DNA from: an uncultured Nitrospiraceae bacterium
GTDB lineage: Bacteria > Nitrospirota > Thermodesulfovibrionia > Thermodesulfovibrionales > Dissulfurispiraceae
Assembly (NCBI GenBank): GCA_963727805.1
Contig: CAVSHF010000003.1
Coordinates: 1,696,001 to 1,760,000, forward strand
Direction of reading: 5' to 3'
DNA length: 64,000 bases
Shown: one piece after another, positions 27,627-64,000 of the stretch
Layout: every line of letters starts with the position of its first letter
Position numbering within the stretch: the stretch's first letter is position 1
Translations under genes and position numbers: made by a program
Notes under the pieces: model-generated
Told to the model about the DNA's origin: nothing
Seen by the model: only the letters and a program-made list of their open reading frames with translations
Database searches by the model: none

Positions 27627-27659
27627 TGCAATACAGATGCCACATGTAAGTGTCTGATA
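27627..27659 (-). promoter_or_regulatory. sigma54 promoter of nifB with IHF-like site
   Basis: TGGC-atctgta-TTGCA (27642-27627); TATCAGacacTTA (27659-27647). Confidence 0.8.
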
Positions 27660-29110: not shown

Positions 29111-29140
29111 ACCGTTCATTAAAGTATATGGTTTCATATA

Positions 29141-29622: not shown

Positions 29623-29634
29623 GCAGCAATGAGT

Positions 29635-29913: not shown

Positions 29914-30087
29914 ATTGCCTCCTTTCCTGCACTGACATTTCCATTATTAATTCTTTTGGCGAAACTTCAAAATACTTGTCATCTCTACTCAGGGCAGCGA
30001 TGCCCCGTCAGAAACATCCTGAACGATGTATACTGTCCTTCATGTAGCGAGTAATACTCGGCTATCCTGCAGTTTTCTGCAATTTGG

Positions 30088-30504: not shown

Positions 30505-30818
30505 AGGCCAGCCTCCCCTGTTCTTATTGTGTAGGCATTATCGACCGGACTTACAAATATTTTTCCATCCCCTATAAATCCTGACCTAGCCTTGTCCTGG
30601 ATAATCTTGACCACCTTGTCAGCATCTTCGTCATCGATCACAGTCATGATCAGCGTCTTAGGTAGTTCATCGTAATGGAGCGGTCCAACTTGCAGTCCTT
30701 TCTGCTTACCCCTTCCAAAGACTGGCATCTTGGTAAGTGAAGGGAATCCGGCACCTTCGAGTGCCAGCACCACCTCCTGCTCTTTTTCAGGTCTAATAAA
30801 AGCCCTTATCATTTTCAT
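30501..30818 (-). CDS. nifI1: PII-family nitrogenase regulator NifI1
   Basis: MKMIRAFIRPEK, GRGKQKG, YDELPK, GDGKIFV; overlaps nifI2 by 4 nt. Confidence 0.9.
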   Translation of the reverse strand: MKMIRAFIRPEKEQEVVLALEGAGFPSLTKMPVFGRGKQKGLQVGPLHYDELPKTLIMTVIDDEDADKVVKIIQDKARSGFIGDGKIFVSPVDNAYTIRTGEAGL

Positions 30819-30914
30819 TGTGTCTGTCCTCCTCAATAGTTGTGATTGCGCTATGCATTTTTTTTATTATGTCTTGCCTGGCCTGCCTATCGTAATGCCT
30901 GAACACAAGCCTCA

Positions 30915-31313
30915 TTAGCGATTCATGCCCAAAGCTTTTTTTAGCCACGGCGGAGGCGAGACCTTGACCGTTTCGAGCAGTCTCTTCATAGACTCCTCGA
31001 TGGTAACTTCCTCTTTCACCTTCACCGGCATAATTCCTTTCTTTATCAGCCGCGCTGCTGACGGCCCCCCGATCTCGGTGAGATAGATGATCTTGCAGTC
31101 GGCAAGTCTATTCACCTTGGCCTGAACTCGGTCATCGTGTAACTCCCCCAGTCCCCTTGTCTCGACAATCGTCTCATCAACTCCGTCAGCGAATTTTCTC
31201 AGTTCAATAAAACTGTATTCTTCGGGTGTCAATTCATATACAGCAAACGCACCTGCCCTGCCGAAATGCTCGTCTACATTGATACCGTCTGTTGTTGCAA
31301 AGGCTACCTTCAT
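30915..31313 (-). CDS. nifX: NifX
   Basis: MKVAFATTDG..VDEHFG, IGGPSAARL, PPPWLKKAL. Confidence 0.92.
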   Translation of the reverse strand: MKVAFATTDGINVDEHFGRAGAFAVYELTPEEYSFIELRKFADGVDETIVETRGLGELHDDRVQAKVNRLADCKIIYLTEIGGPSAARLIKKGIMPVKVKEEVTIEESMKRLLETVKVSPPPWLKKALGMNR

Positions 31314-31334
31314 ATCGTACCTCCTTCAGCCCAT

Positions 31335-33938
31335 TCAGTGGGCTGCAATCATTAAATTCCCCAACTCGTTGACTATGCCGAGTGTTCCCGAGTACCCGAT
31401 CGTCACCCTTGCCGCAATCCCCAGGAGTTTATAGACCGGAAACCCTGCATGATACAAGGGGATCTTCAACCTCTTCGCCGTCTCCTGGGCGTGCGAGTTA
31501 GATATTAAGATATCTATGCCGTCTCCGACAGACTGCAGATCACCTACAATCACCTCGTCAGCAATGAGATGTACTGCAGATGGAACAGAATAAGGAATCA
31601 CCGCTTGTTTCACCACCACACCCGCTTCATCGAGCATCCTTGAAAGTGCTATAGACAGATCGGGTTCCAGCGCAAGGCACGCCCTTTTGCCACCGAGATA
31701 GAAATGGGCGTCTCGCATACCATCGATAAGGATGCTCCTCTTCCGCTGATATTTCCCAGGCATCGGCCTGCCGCTCAACATAGAGAGTGCCTCCATGAAC
31801 GAATCGGTGTCCCGCATTCCGATGAGACCTCTGAAAACCCGGTATTCCATACCAAATTGCTCCTTCAGTTTTATGGATGGAAGCTCCATTGAAGCGCCTA
31901 TTGCGATGGTAAATTCTGAATTGGCCGCTACCCTCAAGTCGTCGACAGTCGTTCCCCCAATGGCCAATGCCGATACCCCTTTTCTGCTGCCGTCAAGGGC
32001 AGCGAGATCAGGAATTATAATCGGCCTCAGGCCGAAGGACTCGATCATCTCCCGAAGTTCGGTGAAATCCGCAGGCGTGAGGTGAGAGCCCGCCAGAACA
32101 TTGACCTGTCCGTTTTCCAGGTGAGTCTTTTCACTCTTATTAATCGATGCAACAAGGGCCTCGACCGCCTTGGCGTATCCGGTTTCCAACCCCCCTGCAT
32201 AATCGGGGGTGGAAACATGAACAATTACTGTGTCATGCGTTCCATCGAGCATCTTGAGGGTGCCCGGCAGATCATCTCCCTTTGCCTCTGAGAGCCCTGT
32301 CGTGAGAATGCCTATGACATCCGGAGAATTATTTCCGATCAGACCCTCGACAGCACTGACGGCGTTCTCCTCGCTGCCCATTACCACATTTTCGACAAAA
32401 AGTTTCGAACTCACCATCGCAACGGGCTCGCGGAAATGGGCGCTCAGCAATACCTTTCCGAGGAAGTTACATCCTTGGGCGCCATGGATTACCGGCACGG
32501 CACGGTCAATACCCTGGAACGCCATTGCAGCGCCAATCGCCTGGGAATGCTTCAACGGATTAATGAGCACGTCACTCGTCAGCCTTTTAACTGCTGCCTC
32601 CTGAGCAGGTGTATTGCTATGCTCGCCCGTGACTCTTGTTTTCTCATAGAACCTTATGGCGTTGCTCAAATCATCAGCGATATTGACGAGCCCTTCGTAG
32701 CCCGCATACGGTCGGTGCCTCTCCTGGTTGACGTCGATGAAAGGATATCCTTCTTTAACCCCGAGATACTTATTCCTGCCGCCCGCTACGAGCATATCGG
32801 CATTATGTTTCTGCAGCAGCGTGAGAAGGTTTTTCGGCGTAACGTCCTCGACGAGAGGCGCGTCAGGGCCGAGTATCGCTTTCATCTTTTCCTCATCCTC
32901 GAAGGTGCTCTTCTTAGTCCCCACGGCAACGACCTCGATGCCGAGGTCAAGGAGTGCCGAGATGAATGACCAGCTCTTTACGCCGCCGGTATAGAGCACA
33001 GCCCTTTTCCCCCGCAGGTGTCGGTACGGCTTCAATCTTTCTTTGAGACTGAGTTCCTCCTTTGCAATGACCTCTTCAATTCTATCCGCCACATCGGACG
33101 CCGCATAGTGCATCATGAATTTTTCACCTATGGCCCGCAAAGACTTGGACATCTCGGTTTTGCCAAAAAAAGATACCTCAGCGTAAGGGATGCCATACCT
33201 CTTCTCCATCTCTTTCGCAACGTTGATCAGAGCGCGACTGCAGACCATGACATTAAGCCTTGCGCGATGGGCATAAGTAATCTCTTCGAAAGTCGAGTCG
33301 CCCGTAATCCTCGAAAGCACCCTGATACCGGCCTTTTTGAGCACCGGTTCAACGAGCCAGAGATCCCCGGCGATGTTATATTCTCCGATTAGATTGATAT
33401 CGTATTCCGAAACATCCTCAGCCTCGCCGGTACCGATCACGTGCTCCAGGAGCACCTCTCCCGCAATCCGGTTGCCCAGGTTTTTAGGTCCCACAAAGCC
33501 GGGAGCATTCACCGGGATAACCCGTATGCCGAGTTCGCCCTCGGCCTTTTTGCAAACGGCTTCAATGTTTTCACCGATCAAGCCGCTTACGCATGTTGCA
33601 TGAACGAATATCGCCTTCGGATTTACGGCATCGTTTATCTTAATGATGGCACGATAGAGTTTCTCTTCCGACCCGTAGATAATGTCGAGTTCCTGCATAT
33701 CGGTGGTAAATCCCCATTTATGAAGATCACCCTTCGACGACAGGGTCCCCCTTCCTTCCCACGAATTGCCGCAGCAAGCGATAGGTCCATGGACGATGTG
33801 AGCCGCATCGGCGATGGGCTGAAGCACAATCATCGCTCCATCAAAAGCGCATGACTCTCCACCCCGTGCCCGACAGAGCTTTTCTCTCTGTTCGTGCTCG
33901 CAGCCGCTATTGAGCAATTTGTCCACATTCGCAAACAT
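31335..33938 (-). CDS. nifEN: Fused NifEN scaffold
   Basis: NifE half (ESCAFDGA, HGPIAC, YTGGVKSWS, NQER) continues without a stop into the NifN half (NPLKHSQAIGA, HGAQGC, HFREP). Confidence 0.95.
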   Translation of the reverse strand: MFANVDKLLNSGCEHEQREKLCRARGGESCAFDGAMIVLQPIADAAHIVHGPIACCGNSWEGRGTLSSKGDLHKWGFTTDMQELDIIYGSEEKLYRAIIKINDAVNPKAIFVHATCVSGLIGENIEAVCKKAEGELGIRVIPVNAPGFVGPKNLGNRIAGEVLLEHVIGTGEAEDVSEYDINLIGEYNIAGDLWLVEPVLKKAGIRVLSRITGDSTFEEITYAHRARLNVMVCSRALINVAKEMEKRYGIPYAEVSFFGKTEMSKSLRAIGEKFMMHYAASDVADRIEEVIAKEELSLKERLKPYRHLRGKRAVLYTGGVKSWSFISALLDLGIEVVAVGTKKSTFEDEEKMKAILGPDAPLVEDVTPKNLLTLLQKHNADMLVAGGRNKYLGVKEGYPFIDVNQERHRPYAGYEGLVNIADDLSNAIRFYEKTRVTGEHSNTPAQEAAVKRLTSDVLINPLKHSQAIGAAMAFQGIDRAVPVIHGAQGCNFLGKVLLSAHFREPVAMVSSKLFVENVVMGSEENAVSAVEGLIGNNSPDVIGILTTGLSEAKGDDLPGTLKMLDGTHDTVIVHVSTPDYAGGLETGYAKAVEALVASINKSEKTHLENGQVNVLAGSHLTPADFTELREMIESFGLRPIIIPDLAALDGSRKGVSALAIGGTTVDDLRVAANSEFTIAIGASMELPSIKLKEQFGMEYRVFRGLIGMRDTDSFMEALSMLSGRPMPGKYQRKRSILIDGMRDAHFYLGGKRACLALEPDLSIALSRMLDEAGVVVKQAVIPYSVPSAVHLIADEVIVGDLQSVGDGIDILISNSHAQETAKRLKIPLYHAGFPVYKLLGIAARVTIGYSGTLGIVNELGNLMIAAH

Positions 33939-33995
33939 GATATTCTCCGTTTTAGTGTTCGTCTGGATGCCCGTATTGCACTACGCCCCTGAATG

Positions 33996-35510
33996 TCATC
34001 TTATGACATCAAAGCTAGTTGTATTAATCGTTGCACGATCAAGTTCATCCAGCACGGTGTTCACAATCGAGGTCACTATGTTCAGCGCGCCCTGGTAACC
34101 GATAATCGGGTACCTGTGCAGATGGTGCCTGTCAAAAAGCGGGAAGCCGAACCGGATTAGCGGTGTACCCGTGTCACGCCATAGAGACTTGCAGTATGAA
34201 TTGCCTATCAGCAGGTCCACCGGATCGGTAAACATCAGCGAGCGCAGGTGCCAGAGATCTTTGTTTATGTAAACTTTGCCCTCGGCACCATAAGGGCTTG
34301 AAGCGAGCAGTGCCCTTGCCTCTTCCTCGAATGCCTTGTCACCATTGGTGCAGATGATATGCACCGGCTCTCCACCCATCTCCAGGATGATGCTGATGAG
34401 CCCAAGCAGCAGGTCCGGATCTCCCGCCAGCGCAAAGCGCTTGCCATGCACATATGGGTGAGAGTCGACCATCGCGTCGACAAGGCGACCGCGCTCGTCT
34501 TCCAATGTCTGCGGCACCGGTTTACCGGTGATATGGCTCAGGCCCTCAAGAAACTCGTCGGTATTTCTGACGCCGACCGGTATTTTCACCAGCGTCTTCT
34601 GATTCCACCCTTTGTTGATAAAGTCCATAGTCTTAAGAGTCGAATATTTCTGGAGCGCCACCGTCGCCATGGCATTTATCGAATCCATAGTATCCTCTAT
34701 TGTCGTGAGGCCGCGATAGATCTTCGCCTGACCTGTGTTGGGCGCATCGAAGGAATCGCTGACATCCGCAAGCGTTGTATACTTTACATCCATCATGTCC
34801 AGCATTCGCTTGATCTCCCGGTAATTGCCCGTGTAGGGATCAAACCCGGCAATGATGTTCACCTTGCCGTTCGGCTCGCCCTGCTTACCTGTTGTGAGCG
34901 TTTTGATGATGCTCCTCATCATATTGTCGTATCCAGTAATATGGGAGCCGACAAAACTCGGTGTATTCGCATAAGGCGTCAACAACTCGGGAGGGATGAT
35001 GCCCTTTTCCTTTGCGCCCTTGGTGTAGGCGTTCAGGTCGTCGCCAATAACCTCGGCTATGCAGCTCGTAAAGATCGCCATCATCTTGGGCTTATAGAGT
35101 GCATAGGCGTTTTCCAGACCCTCGGTCATGTTGTTCAGGCCTCCGAAGACCGCTGCATCCTCCGTCATTGAGGATGAGACCGCCTGCACCGGCTCCTTGA
35201 AGTGGCGATTCAGATGGCTGCGAAAATAGGCCACACAGCCCTGGGCTCCCTGACAAAATGGCAGCGTATTTTCAAACCCCAGCGCGCAATAGAGTGCCCC
35301 CAGAGGCTGACAAGCCTTAACAGGGTTGATCTTGATATGCTGACGCGCAAAGTTCTTCTCCTTATATTCTTCGGTCTTTGTCCATTCCGAGATCTTCTGC
35401 ACCTCTTCGGTCGTCGGGCAACACTCGAACTCTTTTTTCCGCTCGAACTGTTCCTGGTACTCAGGCTCCAGGAATAATTCGCTGTGATCTTTTATTTTCA
35501 GTTTTATCAT
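33996..35510 (-). CDS. nifK: Nitrogenase MoFe protein beta chain
   Basis: NPVKACQPLGA, QGCVAYFR, SSSMTEDAAVFGG, TPSF, GFPLFDRHH. Confidence 0.97.
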   Translation of the reverse strand: MIKLKIKDHSELFLEPEYQEQFERKKEFECCPTTEEVQKISEWTKTEEYKEKNFARQHIKINPVKACQPLGALYCALGFENTLPFCQGAQGCVAYFRSHLNRHFKEPVQAVSSSMTEDAAVFGGLNNMTEGLENAYALYKPKMMAIFTSCIAEVIGDDLNAYTKGAKEKGIIPPELLTPYANTPSFVGSHITGYDNMMRSIIKTLTTGKQGEPNGKVNIIAGFDPYTGNYREIKRMLDMMDVKYTTLADVSDSFDAPNTGQAKIYRGLTTIEDTMDSINAMATVALQKYSTLKTMDFINKGWNQKTLVKIPVGVRNTDEFLEGLSHITGKPVPQTLEDERGRLVDAMVDSHPYVHGKRFALAGDPDLLLGLISIILEMGGEPVHIICTNGDKAFEEEARALLASSPYGAEGKVYINKDLWHLRSLMFTDPVDLLIGNSYCKSLWRDTGTPLIRFGFPLFDRHHLHRYPIIGYQGALNIVTSIVNTVLDELDRATINTTSFDVIR

Positions 35511-35540
35511 AATATCCTCCCATGCGTACTTAAAATCGTC

Positions 35541-36968
35541 TTACTTCTTCCTCCTGATGAGCTTCCAGGTTGGGCTGTTTATGGTAGCATCCATGTCTCG
35601 GGCAAAAACCCCGAAGCCGTCAAAACCGTGGTACGGCCCTGAGTAATCCCATGAATGCATCTGCCGGAATGGAACACCCATCTTGTGATATGTATACTTT
35701 TCCTTGATTCCAGCTCCGACGAGATCGGGTCTTATCCGGTGGGTGAACTCCTCCAGTTCGTACTCAGTGGCATCGTCGAGGATCAGGGCACCCTCCTTCA
35801 TTTCGGGGTAGGTGCGCTTATAATCGTCATTATGGGCGAACTCGTAGCCGCTCGCGATCACTTCCATCCCGAGGTCTTCATAAGCGCCGATGGTATGGCG
35901 CGGCCTGAGACCGCCGACATAGAGCATGACCGTTTTGCCCTCCAAACGCACCCGATACTTCTCGATCACTGCATCCATCTTCGGTTTATATTTTACGATC
36001 ATCGCCTCTGCCTTCTCCTTGATCGAATCGTCAAAATGAGCGGCGATCTTCCGGATGCTCTCGTATATCCTCGTGGGTCCAAAGAAGTTGAACTCGGTCC
36101 ACGGTATCCCATAACTCTCTTCCATGTGACGGCAGATGTAGTTCATGGAGCGGTAGCAGTGGATGAGATTCAGTTTCGCCTTATGTGCGATGCCCATCTC
36201 ATTTACTGATGCATCGCCGGTCCACTGTGCAATTACCCGAAGGCCCATCTCCTCAAGCATCTTGCGCGAAGACCATGCATCACCACCGATGTTGTAATCG
36301 CCTATGAGAGCAACATCGTAAGGGGTGGTTTTTTCAAGAGTCCCTTTGCCGAGAACATGGTCCCTGATCGTATCGTTAGCGATATGGTGACCCAGTGACT
36401 GGCTGACACCGCGGAACCCCTCGCACCTGACAGGAACAATCGGCATGCCAAACTCCTTTACCCTCTTCTTCGCCACCGCCTCGATGTCGTCGCCAATGAG
36501 ACCAACCGGGCATTCGGAAAGAATCCCGATTCCCTTTGCAAGAGGGAATAGTTCCTTCAGTTCAACGAGTGCACCATCAAGATGCTTGTCACCGCCATAA
36601 ACGATGTCCTTCTCTTGGAAATCAGTCGTAATATGCATTGTGCCGAAGGTGTCTATCCCAGTCTGACCGTTATAATAGTTGCGGCGCGCCCACCAGCTAT
36701 ACTGACCACAGCCGATCGGTCCGTGGCTAATCGTTATCTGGTCCTTGACCGGGCCCCAAACAACACCCTTAGCTCCCGCGTAAGCACAGCCGCGGACCGT
36801 CATGACGCCCGGCCGGGACTTGACGTTAGATTTCACCTGACATGAAGCGCACTGCCCAGTTGGATCATTTGGAGCTATGTGCTTTGCACGCAGCTTTTTG
36901 GTCTTTTCCGGGTAGACCTCCAGGACTTCATCTATCATTTTTTGGGTATCTTCAATTGCCCTGCTCAT
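35541..36968 (-). CDS. nifD: Nitrogenase MoFe protein alpha chain
   Basis: [51 protein letters not shown]. Confidence 0.98.
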
Positions 36969-37114
36969 AATATCCCCCTTAAAAAATTAGTACGGATGTA
37001 CGTTTGTTCAAGACAGAAATATTTCGCTGCTTTTCAGCTGCACTTGTGCTTCCACATCATTTTGTTGAGTACGTTTAGTACTCAGGCATTTGCGCACGTC
37101 CGCGCTGAACATTT

Positions 37115-37981
<867 letters not shown>

Positions 37982-49772: not shown

Positions 49773-50945
49773 CTAACACTTGATGGCTCGATCCTTGCCG
49801 TACGGGGAGAGCGTTCTCAACTCTTTAATTATGGGGGGCATAATCTCAATGACCTTCTCGATCTCTTCTTCAGTGTTGTAGCGGCTTAAAGAGAACCTTA
49901 TGGAGCCGTGGATTGCAGTATAAGGAATCCCCATTGCCCGCAACACATGGCTCGGCTCAAGGGCGCCTGAGGTGCAAGCAGAACCAGATGACGCGCAGAT
50001 ACCATATTCGTCGATTCTGAGTAATATGGCTTCTCCCTCGACATATTCGAAGCTGATGTTGGTCGTATTCGGAAGCCGGTGGACGGTGTCGCCGTTAACA
50101 CGGGGGTCTGGGCATTTTTCGAGGAGAGCCTTTTCCAGCTTGTCCCTCAATCGCGCCATATGAACCGCCTCTATCTCAAGGTTCTCAAGGGCGAGTTCAC
50201 AGGCCTTCCCGAAAGCGATAATACTTGGGACATTTTCGGTACCGGCTCTTCTGCCACGCTCCTGATGCCCTCCGATGAGATAAGGATAAAACCGCGTGCC
50301 CTTTCTCACGTACAACGCGCCAATACCTTTCGGTGCATGGAGCTTGTGGCCGGAAATGGACAGCATGTCCGTAGGAAGGCTCTTCACATTTATCGAGATC
50401 TTCCCCGCCGTCTGGACGGTATCGGTATGGAAGAGAATGTTTCTCTCTTTGAGTAGCGAGCCGATCTCTTCTATCGGGAAAATAACTCCAGTTTCGTTAT
50501 TGGCATGCATGATCGAAACAACCGCGGTATTGTCATCAAGCGTCTTCAAAAAATAATCCATGTCGAATAGTCCCTGATTGTCAACAGGTACAAAAGAGAC
50601 GCGGTAGCCCTTGCGTGCAAGATGCTTTGCAAAATTCAACACCGCTGGATGTTCGACCCTTGAGGTAATAATATGCTTTTTGCTTGGAAATGACTCCACG
50701 GCGCTCATGATAGCTGTATTGTCGCTTTCGGTGCCGCAACTCGTAAAGATAATCTCTTCAGGTTCAGCCCCAATAAGTGCGGCAACCTTTGCCCTTGCCT
50801 CTTCCACATTCCGGTGGAGTCGACCTCCGAAGATATGCATACTCGACGGATTACCATACAACTCATGGAGATAGGGAAGCAGGGCTTCGGCAACCTCTGG
50901 AGCCACTGCGGTTGTCGCATTATTGTCGAGATAGATAGGGTTCAT
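49773..50945 (-). CDS. nifS: Cysteine desulfurase NifS
   Basis: YLDNNATT, GNPSS, SGHKLHAPKG, SSGSACTS. Confidence 0.95.
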   Translation of the reverse strand: MNPIYLDNNATTAVAPEVAEALLPYLHELYGNPSSMHIFGGRLHRNVEEARAKVAALIGAEPEEIIFTSCGTESDNTAIMSAVESFPSKKHIITSRVEHPAVLNFAKHLARKGYRVSFVPVDNQGLFDMDYFLKTLDDNTAVVSIMHANNETGVIFPIEEIGSLLKERNILFHTDTVQTAGKISINVKSLPTDMLSISGHKLHAPKGIGALYVRKGTRFYPYLIGGHQERGRRAGTENVPSIIAFGKACELALENLEIEAVHMARLRDKLEKALLEKCPDPRVNGDTVHRLPNTTNISFEYVEGEAILLRIDEYGICASSGSACTSGALEPSHVLRAMGIPYTAIHGSIRFSLSRYNTEEEIEKVIEIMPPIIKELRTLSPYGKDRAIKC

Positions 50946-50951
50946 TTCTTG

Positions 50952-51782
50952 TTAGTGTGCCTCCACCACGATATCTTCGCTGATGAGTTCCTTGAGTTTC
51001 TGCTCGATGCTCTGGACTGTCACGCCCCCCATTGGGCATGAAACGCACATCGCGCGAAGGGCTATGATGACCTTGCTGCCTTCGACATCGAGGAGTTCAA
51101 GGTCGCCTCCATCGGCCTGGAGCTTGGGCCTTATCTCCCTTTCGAGCACGTCCTGGATCAGTGCGATCTTCTGAAGGTTTGTAAGCTTCTTATGCTCTTT
51201 GGGTTTCGGCACTTCTTTGAGTGCCCAAATGTCCTTGAGAATTGCCTCTATATCGGGAATGCATGTGCCGCAGCCCCCTCCAGCCTTTGTAAAATCAGAA
51301 ATCTCTTCAACGGTCATAAGATGGTTCTCGATGGCAACACGCCTTATCTTTTCTTCAGAGACGTCGAAGCACTTGCAGACAATCCGTTCCTCAGTCTCTG
51401 CAGGCTTTTGCTCTCCCTTGTAACTCGCTATGGCTGCTTCAAGCGCCTCTTGCCCCATGACGGAACAATGCATCTTCTCCTTCGGGAGTCCACCGAGGAA
51501 CTCGGCGATATCCTGATTCGTAATCTTCTCAGCCTCATCTAGGGTTTTCCCTTTGAGCAGCTCGGTGAGGGCAGAAGAACTCGCTATCGCGGATGCGCAG
51601 CCAAAGGTCTGGAATTTAGCGTCGATGATCTTCCCCGTGTCTTTGTCGATCTTAAGGGTAAGCCGCAGGGCATCTCCGCAGACGATGCTGCCCACTTCTC
51701 CGACAGCATCTGGATTTTCGACTTCACCGACATTCTTTGGATGAAGAAATAAGTCTCTAACTTTATCGGTATATTCCCACAT
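50952..51782 (-). CDS. nifU: Fe-S scaffold NifU
   Basis: CGDAL, FGCASAIAS, KMHCS, CKCF, GGGCGTC, DGGD, CVSC; start MWEYTDKV. Confidence 0.95.
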   Translation of the reverse strand: MWEYTDKVRDLFLHPKNVGEVENPDAVGEVGSIVCGDALRLTLKIDKDTGKIIDAKFQTFGCASAIASSSALTELLKGKTLDEAEKITNQDIAEFLGGLPKEKMHCSVMGQEALEAAIASYKGEQKPAETEERIVCKCFDVSEEKIRRVAIENHLMTVEEISDFTKAGGGCGTCIPDIEAILKDIWALKEVPKPKEHKKLTNLQKIALIQDVLEREIRPKLQADGGDLELLDVEGSKVIIALRAMCVSCPMGGVTVQSIEQKLKELISEDIVVEAH

Positions 51783-51942
51783 GCATTCATTTTTACATAA
51801 AGACCAGCTTCTGTTCAATAAATATTTGAAGCATCGGGGTTATTTTCGCAGGAAGACAGATTGTGTAATCACATGACATTGACAACATTGAAGATCAAAA
51901 ATTAACCTAGTTGCAGTGCATTTCACTTTGTAAGGAGTCTCT

Positions 51943-55391: not shown

Positions 55392-55727
55392 AGCTGCCGC
55401 ACACTCCCGGAATCCGTCTCTATCAGATTATTCTACACGAAATCGCAGACTGGCTACTTGTGACATAATTTTTATTTGTCAAGGATTTCGGGAGGGTGTT
55501 TCATGTCCACCGGGAGGACGATTTTAAGGGAGCGCCCTTTTCTTCTCGCGAATCCGATGATTGAAAGCAATAGGTCAAAAGTCAGGCGTGTTAATCGGGT
55601 TGACAAAGGCCGCGGTTACTTTTTATCATAAACTTCACGGCAATCGGTTACCGTCATGAGCGTCTATGCCGATCAACAAGGTATAGACGCTATTTTTAGT
55701 CATTACGAAAGGACAATAAGGACCCTT

Positions 55728-56153
55728 ATGGACCAAAAAAGCGCCGGACTCAATATTACGATTTTTTTTTGCCAGCAATTAGACCCGAACCAGGAGGTCA
55801 ACAGGCGCGCCCTTGAAAGGGAGCTTGGTAAGCAGATCCGGTTTTTCCCCCTGCCGTGCAGCGGACGCATCGATTCTCTTCACCTCATGCGTGCCCTCGA
55901 ATCGGGGGCTGATAAGGTATATGTTGTCACCTGTCCCGAAGGGGCATGCCATTATCGTGAAGGGAATTTACGTGCCAAAAAGCGCCTTGCCTATACCCAG
56001 GGATTGATCGAAGAAGTAGGCCTTGAGCGTGAACGTTTAGAGTTGATTGTCGCTCCTGCGGGAACCTCTTTGACCGTCGATGAGTTGGCGAGGGGGATCC
56101 TTGCCCGAAATGCCTCAATCGGCCCCTCTCCTGTGCGTGGGAAACAGGCTTGA
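55728..56153 (+). CDS. mvhD: MvhD/FlpD-type [2Fe-2S] subunit
   Basis: FFC, PCSGR, GADKV, CPEGACHYREGN, GLERERL; ATG at 55728 preferred over 55656. Confidence 0.85.
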   Translation: MDQKSAGLNITIFFCQQLDPNQEVNRRALERELGKQIRFFPLPCSGRIDSLHLMRALESGADKVYVVTCPEGACHYREGNLRAKKRLAYTQGLIEEVGLERERLELIVAPAGTSLTVDELARGILARNASIGPSPVRGKQA

Positions 56154-56187
56154 AGATAAAAACGGCTGATGATAAAGGAGTAAGAGC

Positions 56188-56856
56188 ATGATAACTGCTG
56201 AAAGAAAACCTCTATCAGAGATCAAAGAGATGATAGCACCTTACAAAAAGATATTGGTCGTAGGCTGCGGGTCCTGTGTGGCTGAGTGTGCATCGGGTGG
56301 AGAAAAAGAGGTCGGGCTCCTCTCCTCCGCACTCCGTATGGATGCAAAGGCATCAGGGAAGGAGATAGAAGTAAAAGAGATGACCCTGGACCGCCAGTGT
56401 GTCTATGAGTTCATCGACCTTTTGACAGACGTGATAGGCCAGTACGACATTATCCTCTCTCTCGCCTGCGGTGCAGGCGTACAGGCCGTTGCAGAGGTAT
56501 TCCCCAAGGTCCATATTGTCCCTGCCCTTAATACAACATTTCTCGGAGAGACAAAAGAGGCAGGCCTCTGGATAGAGAACTGCCGGGGCTGCGGTGACTG
56601 CAAGCTCGGGGTTTTCGCTGCTGTTTGCCCTGTTACACGTTGCGCTAAAGGACTTTTTAATGGTCCCTGCGGCGGCTCCAGGACAGACCGCTGCGAGGTG
56701 GATCCCGATGTACCCTGCGCATGGCAGCTGATTGTCTCGAGACTCGAAGACAGGGGGCGTCTTGACCTCCTGCGAAAGGTGCATCCCCCTGCGGATTGGT
56801 CAAAACAGCAGGGGAAAGGACCGAGGAGAATTTACAGGGAGGACCAGAGAGCGTGA
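56188..56856 (+). CDS. metV: MetV (MTHFR-associated Fe-S/Zn subunit)
   Basis: MITAERKP, GCGSC, CRGCGDC, CPVTRCAKGLFNGPCGG, CAW. Confidence 0.92.
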   Translation: MITAERKPLSEIKEMIAPYKKILVVGCGSCVAECASGGEKEVGLLSSALRMDAKASGKEIEVKEMTLDRQCVYEFIDLLTDVIGQYDIILSLACGAGVQAVAEVFPKVHIVPALNTTFLGETKEAGLWIENCRGCGDCKLGVFAAVCPVTRCAKGLFNGPCGGSRTDRCEVDPDVPCAWQLIVSRLEDRGRLDLLRKVHPPADWSKQQGKGPRRIYREDQRA

Positions 56857-57776
56857 TGACTGAAAGCCGGCTAAAAAAGGTTTTACATAGTGGAAAATTT
56901 GCCGTTACCGCTGAATGCGGCCCTCCCAAAGGGGCAGACCCCGAAGTCGTGAAGAGCAAAGGAAGGATTCTTAAGGGTTATGTCGACAGCGTAAACGTTA
57001 CAGATAATCAGACTGGGGTGGTCCGTCTTTGCAGTCTTGCTGCATGTGCTATGCTCAATGCGGAAGGGCTTGACTCCGTGCTACAGATGGTCACCCGTGA
57101 CCGCAACCGCATCGCACTCCAGTCGGACGTCCTGGGAGCCTCTGCCCTGGGCATACGCAATATTCTCTGTCTCTCCGGCGATCACCAGACCTTTGGCAAC
57201 CAGCCTCAGGCAAAAGGCGTCTTTGACATCGACTCTATTCAGTTGCTACAGACCGTGCGTAATATGAGAGATGCCGGCGAAGTCATCGGCGGGGAAAAAC
57301 TGAGTATGCCGCCTTATATGTTTATCGGGGCCGCAGCAAATCCCTTTGCCGATCCTTTCAAATACCGAGCTGCCCGTCTCGCTACAAAAGTGGATGCTGG
57401 TGCGGAGTTCATACAGACCCAGTGCATTTACAACCTCAACCGCTTCAAGGAATGGATGGACCTCGTAAAAGACTATGGGATGGATAATAAAGTTTTCATA
57501 CTCGGTGGGATTACTCCGCTTAAATCTGCCCGCATGGCAGAGTACATGGCAAAGAATGTTGCCGGCATGGATGTGCCCGAGGAGATCATCAACAGAATGA
57601 AATCGGTCCCCGCAAAAGAACAGCGGCAGGAAGGAATCAAGATAGCCGTAGAAACCATCCAGGCGCTTCAGGCAATGGAAGGTGTCCGCGGGGTCCATAT
57701 CATGGCAATCGAGTGGGAAGAGGTAGTTCCCCAAATAGTTCAAGAGGCTAAACTTTTCCCCAGGCCTCAGGTTTGA
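56853..57776 (+). CDS. metF: Methylene-THF reductase MetF
   Basis: VTAECGPPKG, NVTDNQ, RDRNRIALQSD, LSGDH, FIQTQ, GVHIMAI. Confidence 0.93.
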   Translation: MMTESRLKKVLHSGKFAVTAECGPPKGADPEVVKSKGRILKGYVDSVNVTDNQTGVVRLCSLAACAMLNAEGLDSVLQMVTRDRNRIALQSDVLGASALGIRNILCLSGDHQTFGNQPQAKGVFDIDSIQLLQTVRNMRDAGEVIGGEKLSMPPYMFIGAAANPFADPFKYRAARLATKVDAGAEFIQTQCIYNLNRFKEWMDLVKDYGMDNKVFILGGITPLKSARMAEYMAKNVAGMDVPEEIINRMKSVPAKEQRQEGIKIAVETIQALQAMEGVRGVHIMAIEWEEVVPQIVQEAKLFPRPQV

Positions 57777-57789
57777 GAGGAGTTAGCAT

Positions 57790-59172
57790 ATGCCCCCCAA
57801 ATATCATATTCATGCCGGCCAAGTAGCGAACCGGTTTCAGGCGATAACCCGGTCTGGTGTCATTGCCTGGGAAGAAGGCTGCCTCAAATGCGCCCGCTGC
57901 GTAAAAAAGGATTGCGTCTACAAGGTATATGAAAAGCGGGGCATTGATTCCCGCCAGATGCTCGAATCCCTCGACAGTGTCTGCATGGACTGCTTCCGCT
58001 GCGTCCAGGGCTGTCCGAACAAACTTATCCAGAAGGGTCTCAATCCCTCATATAAGGCCCTCGGGGATCATTACTGGACTCCGGAGATTATTTCGGGACT
58101 CTGGTACCAGGCAGAAGCAGGCCGTATCCCGGTGTCGGGCGGCGGCTACGGGGGACCTTTCTCCGGACCCGGGTATGATGCCATGTGGACGGATATGTCC
58201 GAAATAGTACGTCCTACGAGAGATGGTATCCATGGCCGCGAATACATAAGCACTACCGCTGATATAGGCCGCAAGGTGATGGCACTCGAATTCGATCAGT
58301 CAGGGGCACTGACGATTACTCCTCCGCCCATTGTGGAGATTCCGCTGCCGCTTTTGTTCGACATCCTACCGTGGTCTCCGCCGCGGAAAGGGATCAATCT
58401 GGCCCTGCTCGAAGGAGCGCGCTCATTGGGGACCTTTGCCATAATCAGGCAAAGTGAGTATGGTTCGGCGATGGAGCAGTATCTGCAGAACATGGTTCTC
58501 TTCGTTGACGGACGTTTATCCGATATTGATTCCGCTGTTCTGAGCAAGTTGCGATTGATAGAGATTCCTTATGGGAAAGAGGTTATCGCCACACAGAACT
58601 CCTTAAAAGAGAAGTTCCCCGGCATCGTGACAATTATCCGGATGGACCTCAGTCCTGATTCATCTGAAAATATCATTCGACTCACCGCAGAAGGCGCCGA
58701 GGTTATACATCTTGTTGCCGATGAATATGGCCTTGAAAGAGCCGACAGGCCTCTCTTTATTAAAGAACGGATGAGGGAGATACACCTTCACCTCGTAGCG
58801 AAGGGAGTGCGTGACCAAATCACCCTCATTTCAGGTGGGGGCATCGCTATGGCGGAGCATGTGGCAAAGCAGATCATCTGCGGTTCAGACCTGGTGTCCG
58901 TCGACATACCACTTCTCATTGCTATGGAGTGCAGGGTATGCCGCCGCTGCAAGGAGGGCATTGCGTGTCCTGTGGAGCTTGACAGTGTCGACACCGTTTG
59001 GGGCGCCGGCCGGGTAAGGAATCTGATGGTAGGCTGGCATAACCAGCTTATCGAGATACTCGGTGCCATGGGTATACGCGAGGTGAGAAGACTACGGGGA
59101 GAAATGGGTCGTGCCATGTTCTTCGAGGATCTCGAAAAAGATATCTTTGCCACACTGGGTAGAAGGGGTTGA
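57790..59172 (+). CDS. Glutamate-synthase-related FMN-barrel paralogue with N-terminal ferredoxin (catalytic motifs degenerate)
   Basis: CLKCARC, CMDCFRCVQGCP, SEIVRPTRDG, SGGGI, CRVCRRC; lacks MSFGS, GEGG and QGAKPG. Confidence 0.8.
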   Translation: MPPKYHIHAGQVANRFQAITRSGVIAWEEGCLKCARCVKKDCVYKVYEKRGIDSRQMLESLDSVCMDCFRCVQGCPNKLIQKGLNPSYKALGDHYWTPEIISGLWYQAEAGRIPVSGGGYGGPFSGPGYDAMWTDMSEIVRPTRDGIHGREYISTTADIGRKVMALEFDQSGALTITPPPIVEIPLPLLFDILPWSPPRKGINLALLEGARSLGTFAIIRQSEYGSAMEQYLQNMVLFVDGRLSDIDSAVLSKLRLIEIPYGKEVIATQNSLKEKFPGIVTIIRMDLSPDSSENIIRLTAEGAEVIHLVADEYGLERADRPLFIKERMREIHLHLVAKGVRDQITLISGGGIAMAEHVAKQIICGSDLVSVDIPLLIAMECRVCRRCKEGIACPVELDSVDTVWGAGRVRNLMVGWHNQLIEILGAMGIREVRRLRGEMGRAMFFEDLEKDIFATLGRRG

Positions 59173-59176
59173 TACA

Positions 59177-60697
59177 ATGGGAACAGACACACATAAACTC
59201 ATGCTGCCTGATGTGAAAAAAGTGCCGAGCCGTTTCCGTAATGCCCTCGGTAAATATCGCGTAGCGGTATCTAAGGCATGCAATAACTGCGGACTCTGCA
59301 TAACGCTTTGCCCTTATGGAGTATACAAGGCAGGATCAAAAAAACCGCGAGTCGCAGCCGATCATCTTTGCCTCGGGTTTCCCTGCAGCTCGAACGAATT
59401 CTACTGCGTGAGCAGATGCCCGGAAAAGGCAATTCATCTAAGTCTGAATCCATCCTTTGAGATCCTGGGTGACAAACGATGGTCGGCTGATCTTCTTGCC
59501 AGCACATGGCATATGGCAGAGACCGGAGAACTTCCTTATCAAGGACTCAACTATAAGACAGGTGATTCAGGCGGCGGGTTTGATAAGCTCCGTTTTATAT
59601 TCCCCAGGGGAAAAGAGCTGGATGTCCCTGATGAAGCAATATCCACAGCCATTGAACTTAATCGTACCGGAGATTCAAGGCCGGGGATCGAGATACCTGT
59701 TCCGTTCTATCTTGGAGGTATGTCATTCGGCTCTGTCAGTATTGTGACCATGCTCTCCCGCGTCAAAGCTGCGGCTGCGCTCAATACCTTCTGCTGTACC
59801 GGAGAAGGTGGATACCCTGAAGAACTGATCCCTTACGATGATCACATCATCACGCAAGTTGCAACGGGTCTCTTCGGGGTAAGAGAAGAGACGCTCAAGA
59901 GGGTCCGGATAGTCGAATTCAAGTATGCTCAGGGGGCAAAACCTGGTCTCGGCGGACATCTTCTCGGTGACAAAGTGACGCCGCGTGTTGCCGCTATGCG
60001 CGAGGCAGTAGCAGGAAGCGCCCTCTTTTCACCGTTTCCATTCCATAGCGTCTACTCGGTGGAAGACCACAAGAAGCATGTAGACTGGATAAAGGAGACA
60101 AACCCCCGTACCCTCGTGTCGGTAAAGGTCTCCACACCGACTGACGTGGACATGGTTGCCGTGGGAAGTTATTATGCCGGTGCCCATATCATTCAGCTTG
60201 ACGGAAGTTACGGCGGAACAGGCGCCGCACCTGATATCGCAAAAAAGAATATTGCTATGCCCATCGAATATGCCGTACCCAAGGTGCATAAATTCCTGTC
60301 TGAAGAGGGGATCAGGGACAAGATAACAATTATCGCGAGCGGCGGGATACGCACCGCGCATGATATGGCTAAAGCCATTGCCCTGGGCGCAAATGGCGTA
60401 TGTCTCGGTACAGCCGATCTCGTGGCCCTCGAATGCATCCGCTGTCACCATTGTGAATCAGGTCGCGGCTGTGCCAGGGGTATTGCCACAACAGACGATC
60501 AACTTACGAACCTCATGGAACTCGAATGGGCGACTCAGCGCATTGTCAACATGTATCTGACCTGGCGGCGCCAGCTTGTCTCCATCCTCAAACGTCTGGG
60601 GATGAAGAGCGTTACAGAGCTTGTGGGACGATTTGATGTGATTGGTCACCTCGATTACATTAAGCAGGAAGAGATACAAGGGGAGTTGGAACTATGA
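59177..60697 (+). CDS. Glutamate synthase FMN-binding subunit with N-terminal ferredoxin
   Basis: CNNCGLC, GGMSFGS, TGEGG, KYAQGAKPGLGGHL, DGSYGGTGA, CIRCHHC. Confidence 0.9.
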   Translation: MGTDTHKLMLPDVKKVPSRFRNALGKYRVAVSKACNNCGLCITLCPYGVYKAGSKKPRVAADHLCLGFPCSSNEFYCVSRCPEKAIHLSLNPSFEILGDKRWSADLLASTWHMAETGELPYQGLNYKTGDSGGGFDKLRFIFPRGKELDVPDEAISTAIELNRTGDSRPGIEIPVPFYLGGMSFGSVSIVTMLSRVKAAAALNTFCCTGEGGYPEELIPYDDHIITQVATGLFGVREETLKRVRIVEFKYAQGAKPGLGGHLLGDKVTPRVAAMREAVAGSALFSPFPFHSVYSVEDHKKHVDWIKETNPRTLVSVKVSTPTDVDMVAVGSYYAGAHIIQLDGSYGGTGAAPDIAKKNIAMPIEYAVPKVHKFLSEEGIRDKITIIASGGIRTAHDMAKAIALGANGVCLGTADLVALECIRCHHCESGRGCARGIATTDDQLTNLMELEWATQRIVNMYLTWRRQLVSILKRLGMKSVTELVGRFDVIGHLDYIKQEEIQGELEL

Positions 60698-63345
60698 AAC
60701 ATTTAAACAATAGAGACGCAATAATTAGATCGCGATACTATTTCCGCGAGGCCGACCGGCTGGTAAATCGAAGTACGATTGAAGCTGAAGAAGGCGGTTG
60801 TGGCGTTACCGGTTTTGCCTGCAATATTCGCGTGAGCGGTCGTCACATATTCACTCCTTCTGTTCAGATGCATAACAGGGGAAACGGCAAAGGGGGAGGT
60901 CTTGCAGCTGTCGGCCTGAGTCCCGACAAGCTCGGAGTGGACCAGGAAACTCTCGACAGTCATTTCCTCCTGCAAGTTGCAATCCTTGACAAGACAGTCG
61001 TACAAGAGATGGAGGCGCGTTTTATCCACCCTCACTTCCGGGTTGCCCATGAAGCGGCCGTCGATGCACTAGATGACTACAGGGACATTGCAGGCCTTGA
61101 GGTTAAGCCTCCGGCGGTGAAACGCTATTTTGTGCGGGTAAAACCGGAAGTCCTTGCCCTTTTCCAGAAAGAGCGCGGACTGGAAATGCTGTCTTATGAC
61201 AGGGCAGAGGAAGAGTTCATCTTCCAGAATACGTACCAGTTGAACCTTGCCCTGTACAGTTCCCTCGGTGAGAAAAAGGCCTTTGTTCTTTCCCACGGCA
61301 GGAACATGATGATACTGAAGATAGTGGGTTATGCCGAGCAGGTGGCCCAATACTATAAACTAGAAAACTTTGATGCCAATATATGGATAGCCCATCAGCG
61401 GTATCCCACCAAGGGCCGGGTCTGGCATCCCGGCGGGGCTCATCCCTTCATAGGCCTTAATGAAGCCCTTGTGCACAATGGAGACTTTGCGAATTATTAT
61501 TCCGTATCCGACTATCTTCGCCAACGCAATATCTATCCGCTTTTCCTTACCGATACAGAGGTTTCTGTTCATGTGTTCGACCTCCTGAGCAGAGTATACG
61601 GGTATCCTCTTGAGTACATAATTGAAGCCCTTGCCCCTACGGGAGAGATGGATTTCGATCATCTACCGAAAGAAAAACAACTCATCTATAGACAGATCCA
61701 GGCTACCCACATCCATGGCTCTCCTGACGGACCCTGGTTCTTCATCATCGCCCGCAACAATGTTCAGAAAAAAAAGTTCCAGCTTATCGGCATTACCGAT
61801 ACAGCCATGCTGCGGCCACAGGTCTTTGCCTTGCAGAAAGGGGCAGTGGAGATAGGACTGATCTGTTCGGAAAAACAGGCGATAGATGCGACCCTGGAAA
61901 GCCTCGCAAAAGAAGACCCGCGTTTCGGTACGATAGCAGACCATTACTGGAATGCCCGTGGCGGTAGTTACACTGATGGCGGGGCTTTTATCTTCACAAT
62001 ACAGGAGTCTGCACCAGGAAAGATGAGTCTCACCTGTACGGATAAATTCGGACGGCTTGTGGATGTTCCAACAGACCAGACACCTCTTGATAGCAGAGCC
62101 CACTCGCAGGCGGCACCGACCACTCCTGTGGCTCTCTCAAAAGACATCCTTAAAGACATGTCCGAGGGCAACGCAGAAAAGATATTTACCGGCTTGAAAG
62201 CGCGTTTTGTTGAATGGGACTATACACAGCTCTCCACATTCCTCAACCAGATCGTCGCCCTTGCAGAGAAGGATGATCTGAGGAAGACGGCAATCGCTCT
62301 GCTCGCGCTCCTTCTTGACCGACACTACTTTACAGGAAACATGAGACGGCGTTCAGTGCTCCAGATGGTCTCCGACGCACTCGATTCTATCTTCAGGGCT
62401 ATTCCTATGATCAGTGAGACTAAAAGCGCTCTATCCTGCTGTAAAATTGATTTTTACAACCGTCATATACTTCGTGCCCCAGCGAAAGGGGAAAAGGTCT
62501 TGGTTGCTGACGCGGGACTATTCCCTCCCGAAGGTGATGACTCATTCGCCCGTCTTATCTCAGACGCGTACAGTCTCGGCTGGAAGCGGTTCATCTGTTT
62601 CGGCCAGCGTGGTCAGCGCTTTCTTGGGTGCGGGGTTGGTCCCGACACAAAGGGAGTGCGTATAGACTCCTTCGGCTCTTCGGGAGACTATCTCGGTTCC
62701 GGCATGGACGGACTTGAAATCTTCGTGCACGGAAATGCCCAGGACCAACTCGGGCAGATTATGAAATCGGGGAAACTCGTCGTGCATGGTGATGTAGGGC
62801 AGACGTTCATGTACGGGGCGAAAGGCGGCGAGGTCTATGTGCTCGGAAATGCTGCAGGCCGTCCCCTCATCAATGCGTGTGGCAAACCGAGGGTTGTCAT
62901 AAACGGCACAGCACTCGACTACCTGGCGGAATCTTTTATGGCGGGCGATCCTTACAAGGGCGGCGGTTTCGTTATTCTGAACGGCCTGACCTTTGATAAA
63001 GATGGAAAGATGGTCCCTCTGGAGATACCCTATCCCGGATCGAATATCTTCTCACTCGCATCAGGTGGAGCAATTTTTGTGCGCGACCCGCATCAGTCCA
63101 TCGTACAGGAGCAGTTGAATGGAGGTCAGATCCTGCCCTTTAGGAAAAAAGACTGGAAGCTGATACTCCCCTATCTGAAGGAGAATGAACGACTATTCGG
63201 CATCGGGATAGATGAACTCCTTACTGTGGACGGCAAACTTTGCAAACCTGAAGAGGTCTATCGCACTATTGGAGCGGTAAAGCTCGCCGTCCTTTCGGGG
63301 ACCGCCGCCATCGCCATGAATGAAGAGTGGGAAGAGGAAGATTAG
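60694..63345 (+). CDS. Glutamate synthase amidotransferase (Ntn) plus GXGXG beta-helix subunit
   Basis: EEGGCGV, HNRG, AHQRYPT, AHPF, HNGD, TDTE, DGP, LRP; C-terminal GXGXG repeats. Confidence 0.9.
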   Translation: MKHLNNRDAIIRSRYYFREADRLVNRSTIEAEEGGCGVTGFACNIRVSGRHIFTPSVQMHNRGNGKGGGLAAVGLSPDKLGVDQETLDSHFLLQVAILDKTVVQEMEARFIHPHFRVAHEAAVDALDDYRDIAGLEVKPPAVKRYFVRVKPEVLALFQKERGLEMLSYDRAEEEFIFQNTYQLNLALYSSLGEKKAFVLSHGRNMMILKIVGYAEQVAQYYKLENFDANIWIAHQRYPTKGRVWHPGGAHPFIGLNEALVHNGDFANYYSVSDYLRQRNIYPLFLTDTEVSVHVFDLLSRVYGYPLEYIIEALAPTGEMDFDHLPKEKQLIYRQIQATHIHGSPDGPWFFIIARNNVQKKKFQLIGITDTAMLRPQVFALQKGAVEIGLICSEKQAIDATLESLAKEDPRFGTIADHYWNARGGSYTDGGAFIFTIQESAPGKMSLTCTDKFGRLVDVPTDQTPLDSRAHSQAAPTTPVALSKDILKDMSEGNAEKIFTGLKARFVEWDYTQLSTFLNQIVALAEKDDLRKTAIALLALLLDRHYFTGNMRRRSVLQMVSDALDSIFRAIPMISETKSALSCCKIDFYNRHILRAPAKGEKVLVADAGLFPPEGDDSFARLISDAYSLGWKRFICFGQRGQRFLGCGVGPDTKGVRIDSFGSSGDYLGSGMDGLEIFVHGNAQDQLGQIMKSGKLVVHGDVGQTFMYGAKGGEVYVLGNAAGRPLINACGKPRVVINGTALDYLAESFMAGDPYKGGGFVILNGLTFDKDGKMVPLEIPYPGSNIFSLASGGAIFVRDPHQSIVQEQLNGGQILPFRKKDWKLILPYLKENERLFGIGIDELLTVDGKLCKPEEVYRTIGAVKLAVLSGTAAIAMNEEWEEED

Positions 63346-63370: not shown

Positions 63371-64000
63371 ATATCCTTAAAAAGCTCACGGAAAGACAGT
63401 AGAAACAAACAGCCTTCAGATCTTCTTTTCACACTCCTCATGGTTCTCTCCATGGTCATCTGGGGTGGCAGCTGGGTATCTGCAAAGGTTATGGCCGTGC
63501 GTCTCACACCTGAGCTGCTCAGTTTCTGGCGGTTTCTTCTGAGTTTTCTGTCCTTTGTGCCCCTGCTCATAATCCTCCGAATACCACTCGTGCTTTCAGG
63601 CCAGGGCGTAGGGTACAGCGCATTCGGCGCTTTTTTTATCAGCGCCTACATGTATTATTTCTTCAGGGGGCTGGAGCATGGATTGGCGGGAGCTGCGGGC
63701 GTGCTGGTCACCTCGATGATGCCGCTGATGACCTTGCTGTTCTCCCTGCTCCTCCTTAAAAAGAAGACGACAGGACGTGACATTGCCGGTCTGGTGGTAG
63801 GTATGGCCGGTGCTGCGGTACTTCTCAGGCTCTGGACCTTCGATGCGCACGACCTTTTCCAGAGCAGTAATGTCCTATTCGTCCTCTGCTCAGCCCTCTG
63901 GGCCCTCGTGACAATCAGCAGTCAGCGGGCCGCCGAAACCATTTCACCCTATATGTTCAGCTTCATGACGTATGGCTTTTCAACCCTCTTCTTTCTCCCG
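63371..64000 (+). CDS. EamA/DMT-family transporter (partial; ATA at 63371 or ATG at 63440)
   Basis: Manual translation: MVIWGGSWVSAK, FWRF, FFRGLEHG, LLLKRR, hydrophobic helices; open to the window end. Confidence 0.85.
   Translation, partial: MSLKSSRKDSRNKQPSDLLFTLLMVLSMVIWGGSWVSAKVMAVRLTPELLSFWRFLLSFLSFVPLLIILRIPLVLSGQGVGYSAFGAFFISAYMYYFFRGLEHGLAGAAGVLVTSMMPLMTLLFSLLLLKKKTTGRDIAGLVVGMAGAAVLLRLWTFDAHDLFQSSNVLFVLCSALWALVTISSQRAAETISPYMFSFMTYGFSTLFFLP

Follow-up and report, generated by a model that had tools for sequence, protein, structure and literature searches.

We analysed a window of 64,000 nucleotides from the genome of an uncultured Nitrospiraceae bacterium (family Dissulfurispiraceae; contig CAVSHF010000003.1, positions 1,696,001–1,760,000, numbered below from the first letter of the window), in which a first-pass annotation had pointed to an operon joining mvhD, metV and metF to a glutamate-synthase-like complex. 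Pfam searches identified six open reading frames (ORFs) on the + strand, here called g1–g6. The first (g1, 55728..56153, 141 residues; PF02662, E = 2.7e-23) encodes a divergent FlpD/MvhD-like putative [2Fe-2S] adaptor with four conserved cysteines. It is followed by MetV, the iron-sulfur (Fe-S) subunit of methylene-tetrahydrofolate (methylene-THF) reductase (g2, 56188..56856; PF12225, E = 1.6e-34), and by MetF with its catalytic motifs intact (g3, 56856..57776; PF02219, E = 2.5e-41; Glu20, Asp109 and Gln189 present). Two proteins made of a ferredoxin domain and a Glu_synthase barrel come next: g4 (57790..59172), with a 2[4Fe-4S] ferredoxin, a synthase-type barrel without the flavin mononucleotide (FMN)/2-oxoglutarate loops and a four-Cys C-terminal motif, and g5 (59177..60697; PF01645, E = 5e-91), an FMN synthase subunit with the substrate and loop residues of GltB. 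The last gene (g6, 60694..63345, 883 residues; GATase_6 and GXGXG matches) encodes a class II, N-terminal-nucleophile (Ntn) glutamine amidotransferase, with Cys36 after a 35-residue propeptide, fused to a GXGXG beta-helix. The intergenic distances from g1 to g6 are 34, –1, 13, 4 and –4 nt, a spacing from which we infer co-transcription, and every gene is preceded by a purine-rich ribosome site. None of the six proteins matched an NCBIfam model at cut-off, and a domain search detected neither a GltD nor an HdrA domain among them. The annotated layout, six tightly spaced same-strand genes behind a TTGACA/TATCAT promoter without gltD or hdrA, was thus borne out. Its description of two FMN-barrel paralogues held for the ferredoxin and barrel of both proteins; FMN and substrate motifs were found only in g5, not in g4.

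The residues required for GltB-type chemistry are present in g5 and g6. g5 aligns to positions 854–1170 (the synthase domain) of Azospirillum brasilense GltB, so that K249, Q252, K255, R275 and E296 correspond to GltB K931, Q934, K937, R957 and E978, with T348 at the GGTG motif; we assume that these residues play the same roles in g5 as in GltB. E210, K249, Q252, K255, R275, E296, K317 and T348, together with 12 cysteines, were invariant in 55/55 sequences. g6 aligns with GltB and archaeal-type amidotransferases. Its Cys36 was found in 61/63 sequences (2 gaps), R62 in 62/63 and R236, N262, G263 and D287 in 63/63, which would correspond to the nucleophile Cys1 and the Arg/Asn/Gly/Asp motifs for glutamine binding. 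The operon therefore has both the Ntn amidotransferase motifs (g6) and an FMN barrel with the 2-oxoglutarate residues and the Glu978 loop (g5).

An Ntn amidotransferase, an FMN barrel and a GXGXG helix are shared with the NADPH-dependent glutamate synthase GltB/GltD of A. brasilense (PDB 1ea0, 2vdc, 6s6s) and the ferredoxin-dependent enzyme of Synechocystis (1llw, 1ofd), and the aligned Lys931, Gln934, Lys937, Arg957 and Glu978 positions are kept. Unlike these enzymes, the operon divides the synthase among three differently arranged polypeptides, where GltB is a single large subunit of ~1500 residues (the NF008730 score was 207, its cut-off being 1047); they are linked to MvhD and MetVF and have no adjoining GltD. 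The operon also has two ferredoxin domains and four-Cys C-terminal motifs, and where the truncated central domain would be it has a complete second barrel (g4). The nearest sequence group to g5 (~33%) is the archaeal-type split GltB1/B2/B3 (L034, L089, L112, L129), which likewise has split genes and a ferredoxin-fused FMN subunit on a gene of its own. In contrast to the single FMN subunit and separate amidotransferase and GXGXG genes of that type, the FMN subunit here has two copies, a presumably catalytic g5 and a likely non-catalytic g4, which form a separate clade, the amidotransferase and GXGXG parts are fused, and there are dedicated MvhD-like and MetVF genes.

g4 is only 24% identical to g5, yet the two align by hhalign over 420 columns (E = 3e-65). 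It lacks ~44 residues that carry the 2-oxoglutarate and E978 loops, and its GMS/GEGG motifs are replaced, whereas its ferredoxin cysteines are kept in 53–54/54 sequences and its C-terminal cysteines in 51–54/54. The best match of the AlphaFold model of g4 (mean predicted local distance difference test, pLDDT, 82) was the GltB synthase barrel (Z = 23.3, root-mean-square deviation 3.3, 299 residues aligned); other FMN barrels gave Z = 20. A quick 49-row tree resolved g4 and g5 as sister clades (SH-aLRT 98), apart from GltB, the central domains, the archaeal-type subunits and MgsC, so the subunit phylogeny that had been suggested as a check places them in a clade of their own. g4 did not group with the central domains in BLAST or in the tree, and descent from the GltB central domain was rejected. 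g4 is likely a non-catalytic partner of g5, a pairing supported by natural fusions of the two in one ORF (L078:5138-8134, 998 residues; L238:1746-5018, a 1090-residue frame). A third apparent fusion, at L249, showed no stop between g4 and g5 in one survey and was unconfirmed on re-check; modelling the L078 fusion from its sequence alone gave a structure too poor to use (pLDDT 34). The central domain of GltB has been proposed to stem from a barrel duplication (PMC8097209), an origin that the g4/g5 pair illustrates.

In the upstream module, the cysteine set of g2 was conserved in 40 aligned copies; MetV had no sequence match in the PDB. g3 is 46% identical to a second MetF of the host genome, and its Asp109, which we take to be the equivalent of catalytic Asp120 of Escherichia coli MetF, was kept in 77/77 six-gene loci. 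At least two methylene-THF reductase (MTHFR) hits were found in 45/51 carrier genomes, the operon MetF usually being the extra paralogue; the MetF tree was quick, with long branches, and was not used for claims of origin. g1 lacks the ADxAG and YP motifs of HdrA-adjacent MvhD: ADxAG was found in 1/129 MvhD copies linked to the glutamate synthase (Glt) genes versus 10/13 HdrA-adjacent copies. Part of PMC13580544 describes an extra MvhD cysteine positioned between the cluster of MvhD and the flavin of HdrA; a cysteine of this type occurred in 11/129 Glt-linked and 9/13 HdrA-adjacent copies (12 and 4 copies unscored, respectively). By sequence, the MvhD copies linked to Glt genes form a subfamily of their own. 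Their lack of the motifs of HdrA-linked MvhD favours g1 as an adaptor for the Glt subunits; HdrA binding is still compatible. The type IV MTHFR of Moorella thermoacetica and Sporomusa ovata, HdrCBA-MvhD-MetVF as outlined in parts of PMC8760232 and PMC9430772, has the same mvhD-metV-metF order with intact MetF and MetV. In the operon, however, the Glt subunits occupy the place of HdrCBA, there is no hdrCBA in the unit and MvhD is divergent rather than canonical, while the host keeps a separate canonical cluster.

To define the distribution of the operon, g6 was used in a scan that gave 79 loci (54–84% identity; ~1100 matching stretches estimated), and a g4 alignment in a second scan that gave 80 loci, 69 after removal of 11 contigs already in the g6 scan. 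By record titles, carriers belong to Nitrospirota, Desulfobacterota, Chloroflexota, Acidobacteriota, Planctomycetota, Spirochaetota and candidate phyla. Among loci showing at least 2.3 kb upstream of g4, an mvhD-like gene was present in 52/52 (g6 scan) and 61/61 (g4 scan), and the six-gene order in 37/52 and 37/61. The linkage proposed by the first-pass annotation is thus conserved (74/113 informative loci, with the mvhD-like gene before g4 in 113/113). Other orders in the two sets were mvhD-metF (4 and 5), mvhD-metV (1 and 6) and one mvhD-metV-metF-mvhD. In L037, L190, L191, L193 and L194, with mvhD only upstream, metVF had moved directly behind g6 and was still adjacent. Full-length g6 was found in 73/251 sampled Desulfobacterota genomes but in only 7/300 other genomes of the host phylum and 1/23 of the host family. 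In a quick, unrooted tree the g4 and g5 of the window nest among Syntrophaceae and Syntrophorhabdaceae sequences, which suggests that the operon was acquired horizontally. The Wood-Ljungdahl gene acsB was present in 41/50 carriers; in the Desulfobacterota sample it was found in 62/73 carriers versus 105/178 non-carriers (p = 6e-5, a value that is too strong, since related genomes do not count as independent).

Several Nitrospirota loci have a second, different split glutamate-synthase-like set directly 3' of the operon (a 553-residue ferredoxin plus barrel protein of its own clade; L001:12787-15536, L005:15963-17624, L013:10488-12909, L003, L011, L170). A further divergent Glu_synthase-domain protein of 547 residues lies upstream of glnA and mvhD-g4-g5-g6 at L044:2574-4217.

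What would the split synthase be used for? g5 was the sole Glu_synthase match at E ≤ 1e-30 in 39/50 carrier genomes, although carriers are incomplete metagenome-assembled genomes (MAGs) and broken copies may fall below this threshold. Genes for GlnA, AmtB or PII lie near the operon in 28/79 loci of the g6 scan and 27/69 of the g4 scan; acsB, fhs and nifH were found within 0/79. GmaS (TIGR03105), the partner of N-methylglutamate synthase, scored under cut-off in 51/51 carriers and in the host, and over cut-off in the Sinorhizobium meliloti record. Because the catalytic residues are kept, g5 is often the sole Glu_synthase match, glnA, amtB and PII are neighbours and GmaS is under cut-off, g4–g6 likely represent a glutamine-dependent glutamate synthase of ammonium assimilation. 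The first-pass annotation had placed the complex in a diazotroph; this link was not sustained, since nifH was over cut-off in only 10/51 carrier genomes, and a diazotroph-specific role was rejected.

The same annotation had left open N-methylglutamate as the product. An N-methylglutamate synthase of the MgsABC kind, bringing methylamine carbon into folate, would have the same three-part make-up of amidotransferase, GXGXG and FMN barrel, as in the S. meliloti set beside a type III glutamine synthetase. However, g5 is closer to archaeal-type GltB2 (E = 2e-72) and GltB (1e-55) than to MgsC (2e-22), which falls on a separate tree branch and lacks the E978-equivalent and Fe-S cysteines kept in g5. 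MgsC was represented by a single reference, that of S. meliloti (L124), identified by its type III glutamine synthetase and sarcosine-oxidase-like neighbours. With no GmaS partner (0/51) and no MgsC-like FMN subunit, MgsABC identity was rejected, and a residual MgsABC-like activity seems to us extremely improbable. Of the two products named earlier, glutamate was therefore retained and N-methylglutamate dropped. Plasmid matches L110, L111 and L119, considered as MgsC, proved to be plain GltB.

A catabolic direction, in which g5 oxidises glutamate and the electrons reduce methylene-THF, was also considered. FMN imine chemistry is reversible in principle, and no glutamate dehydrogenase was found in the host genome (3.9 Mb, 100% complete by marker genes). 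On the other hand, this direction is uphill at standard conditions, the glutaminase site is intact, and both the linkage to glnA, amtB and PII and the ANTAR leaders described below fit assimilation, making it a very unlikely use of the operon.

Combining the two halves of the operon, we tentatively propose that g1–g6 form a glutamine-dependent glutamate synthase that takes its electrons from methyl-THF, by way of MetF, MetV and MvhD, and not from NADPH by way of GltD. g6 would hydrolyse glutamine and release ammonia, and g5 would bind FMN and 2-oxoglutarate and reduce 2-iminoglutarate at FMN, two activities that the residues present make highly probable. g4, the flavin-less twin, would pair with g5, stand in for the GltB central domain and add three Fe-S sites. 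Methyl-THF would be oxidised by MetF to methylene-THF, and the electrons would reach the ferredoxin domains of g4 and g5 by way of MetV and the MvhD-like [2Fe-2S] protein. The gene linkage makes contact between MvhD/MetV and the Glt subunits probable; it points more hesitantly to methyl-THF as the main electron donor, a role it could well have. A potential of –200 mV is given for the folate couple in part of PMC8760232. Using NAD+ to oxidise methyl-THF was calculated to be uphill (+23 kJ/mol). Methyl-THF-driven formation of glutamate was calculated at about –24 kJ/mol, using the –200 mV value and general background values for the free energies of the glutamate side. Somewhat more doubtful is the wider claim that joins all parts: a methyl-THF-dependent glutamate synthase (GOGAT) of a new donor class, in which the ATP spent by glutamine synthetase pulls the uphill methyl-THF oxidation of a reverse Wood-Ljungdahl pathway, in which the duplicated g4/g5 barrel independently mirrors the GltB central domain, and which a large share of Desulfobacterota use as their main GOGAT.

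A number of observations weigh against methyl-THF as the donor. MetVF is no obligate neighbour: mvhD stands alone upstream in 10/52 and 12/61 loci, the visible flanks of L035, L044, L054, L065, L195, L224 and L246 contain no met gene, and metV is kept without metF in eight loci. hdr genes lie within 17/79 loci. Where the order is mvhD-metF-g4, with hdrCB-hdrA/L-mvhD-metV usually behind, 9/10 MetF copies no longer have Asp109, so these versions are probably not folate-using, and their HdrL carries a GltD-like insert (Fer4_20 and Pyr_redox_2 modules). An Asp71-type residue failed to separate the MvhD groups, being Asp in only 5/13 HdrA-adjacent copies. The host genome has a complete GltB of 1463 residues besides the operon, 11/73 Desulfobacterota carriers have no acsB, and every carrier with a name is a MAG.

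Because of the hdr genes in these 17 loci, an Hdr-fed version of the system is a serious rival, although we regard it as unlikely. MvhD and MetV would dock the Glt subunits onto an NAD(P)H-oxidising HdrA/HdrL-type flavoprotein, encoded in the operon or elsewhere (here, the contig C5 cluster with its NuoEFG-like insert), and 2-iminoglutarate and methylene-THF would act side by side as high-potential sinks, perhaps those of an electron bifurcation. The HdrL with GltD-like modules adjoining the Glt genes, the degenerate MetF and the lone metV genes all agree with this rival, as do solved complexes in which MvhD is the connector to Hdr (in the part of PMC12350162 that treats them) and the pull-down of HdrA, HdrB and MetF with S. 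ovata MvhD (reported in part of PMC9430772). Against it, 35/39 six-gene loci have no hdr genes directly downstream (4/39 do; some loci are cut short), Hdr clusters have their own canonical MvhD, whose motifs the Glt-linked copy lacks, and the MetF of six-gene loci is intact and highly conserved. The Hdr-fed state is probably the true one for the ten-gene versions.

The operon could also be an ordinary ferredoxin-dependent split GOGAT, with MetVF acting independently in methionine or C1 biosynthesis, co-regulated only and exchanging no electrons with it. The ferredoxin domains on g4 and g5, as in archaeal-type GltB2, the loci without met genes and the use of reduced ferredoxin by type II MetVF in vitro (noted in part of PMC8760232) would fit such an enzyme. 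It would leave unexplained the mvhD-like gene before g4 in all 113 loci, the lone metV or degenerate metF beside g4 and the metVF genes still adjacent after rearrangement, and we consider it improbable.

The predicted promoter of the operon is a sigma-70-type site, TTGACA-18-TATCAT (55600..55629, + strand), with 11/12 consensus matches. It was the best of 13 promoter-like sites in 53–64 kb (shuffled sequence gave 10.1 sites); identical hexamers occur in a same-genus genome and similar ones at other Nitrospirota loci. The stretch 55636–55727 is most likely a leader. Its predicted fold (–25.8 kcal/mol, z = –2.85) contains, on the + strand, a hairpin at 55637..55654 that aligns with hairpin P1 of the ANTAR attenuators in 11 related leaders, and a terminator-like hairpin at 55659..55697 (12 bp stem, 9-nt loop, U-tract) with two-sided change at 9/14 consensus pairs. 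The first-pass annotation had started mvhD at ATG 55656; this start was rejected, as the longer frame runs through the leader. ATG 55728 is most likely the start, since this is where homologues of g1 start, and the DNA left out by it is a structured leader that includes the terminator-like hairpin.

Of 56 leaders of the operon, a strict search found 14, and a relaxed one 17, with a pair of A1/G4 hexaloop hairpins whose second member overlaps a terminator; random windows gave 0.4 and 0.9, respectively. These features are shared with the attenuators of the EutV/NasR/AmiR type; PMC3369931 defines, in part of its text, the ANTAR dual-hairpin substrate with a linker of 5–12 nt, which some linkers in the relatives of the operon exceed, and mentions such elements before glutamate synthase genes of Desulfotomaculum reducens. 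The element occurred in 15/35 carrier genomes with an ANTAR protein versus 0/14 without one. Nitrogen regulation through an ANTAR attenuator is therefore likely in many carriers. In the window, the first ANTAR hairpin and the terminator are kept and the second hairpin is gone, as at other Nitrospirota loci, and the host genome has no ANTAR protein by PF03861 or a local hidden Markov model, a search that was positive in 35/51 carrier genomes. The window leader is a degenerate ANTAR attenuator whose second hairpin was lost in this lineage. L001, L002, L003, L005 and L169 (Nitrospirota) keep the terminator-like hairpin and miss both the second ANTAR hairpin and the ANTAR protein; in L001, L002 and L005 a longer insert separates the leader hairpin arms. 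At L163–L167, the ANTAR proteins of carriers are mostly 240–420 residues long with a non-receiver N-terminal sensor region, and in two cases the gene adjoins a glutamine-dependent NAD synthetase-like gene. Rfam models came nowhere near gathering score on the leader, and neither an NrpR nor a sigma-54 motif was detected there. One GlnR-like match overlaps the –35 box; the same match was present in 0/15 related leaders. In four wetland metatranscriptomes, RNA contigs covered g1–g6 and bridged metV-metF, g4-g5 and g5-g6. We did not count them as evidence, because they come mostly from relatives, may hold DNA and a contig is not a single transcript.

A description of the operon was not found in the literature searched, which left most subscription journals outside; PMC9012536, PMC5736913, PMC7325909 and PMC2702500 treat MetVF-Hdr or HdrL, and the parts of them covered do not describe g1–g6. 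The six-gene system is real and widely conserved, and it appears to be undescribed. Judged from its genes, it would work like a glutamate synthase and be no member of GltBD, the archaeal-type set, MgsABC or type IV MTHFR. Of the annotated complex wiring MetVF and MvhD to a split GltB-like enzyme, the conserved, apparently undescribed unit without GltD stood, and the N-methylglutamate and diazotroph parts fell away. With g6 in 73/251 Desulfobacterota genomes and g5 the sole recognisable glutamate synthase in most carriers, the system may be the route by which many sulfate reducers and syntrophs assimilate ammonium. Should methyl-THF be the donor, GOGAT would gain a new donor class and the folate step at –200 mV a concrete sink, which has been an open problem for MetVF-type reductases. 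If instead Hdr feeds the operon, type IV MTHFR complexes would have in glutamate synthesis a candidate partner that can be tested.

The host genome carries a full Wood-Ljungdahl set (acsBCDE, cooS, fhs), and all its Fer4_20 matches lie in operons other than g1–g6. Its complete GltB (L156, G000:C3:1797092-1801483) has no adjoining gltD; beside it lie genes that resemble those of a CbbQ/NorQ-type ATPase with its partner. The separate Hdr cluster on contig C5 reads hdrC-hdrB-hdrA(NuoEFG-like insert)-mvhD-metV-metF (L155, G000:C5:920418-932949). In it hdrC-hdrB occurs twice, with identical starts, and HdrA is split around a NuoE/NuoF/NuoG-like NADH module before mvhD-metV-metF; it is an unusual type IV MTHFR variant, the hdrC-hdrB duplication perhaps being an assembly artefact. 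On the strand of the operon, 94 nt 3' of g6, lies an EamA transporter gene (63440–64000); no terminator-like site was listed in the interval, and the gene was not seen in the conserved unit. nifHDK lie within the window, where 26688–37957 and 49773–51818 hold nifB-like, nifV-like, two PII, nifX-like, fused nifEN, nifK, nifD and nifH genes. A sigma-54-type site precedes nifH, and nifS-nifU lie apart, upstream of the operon.

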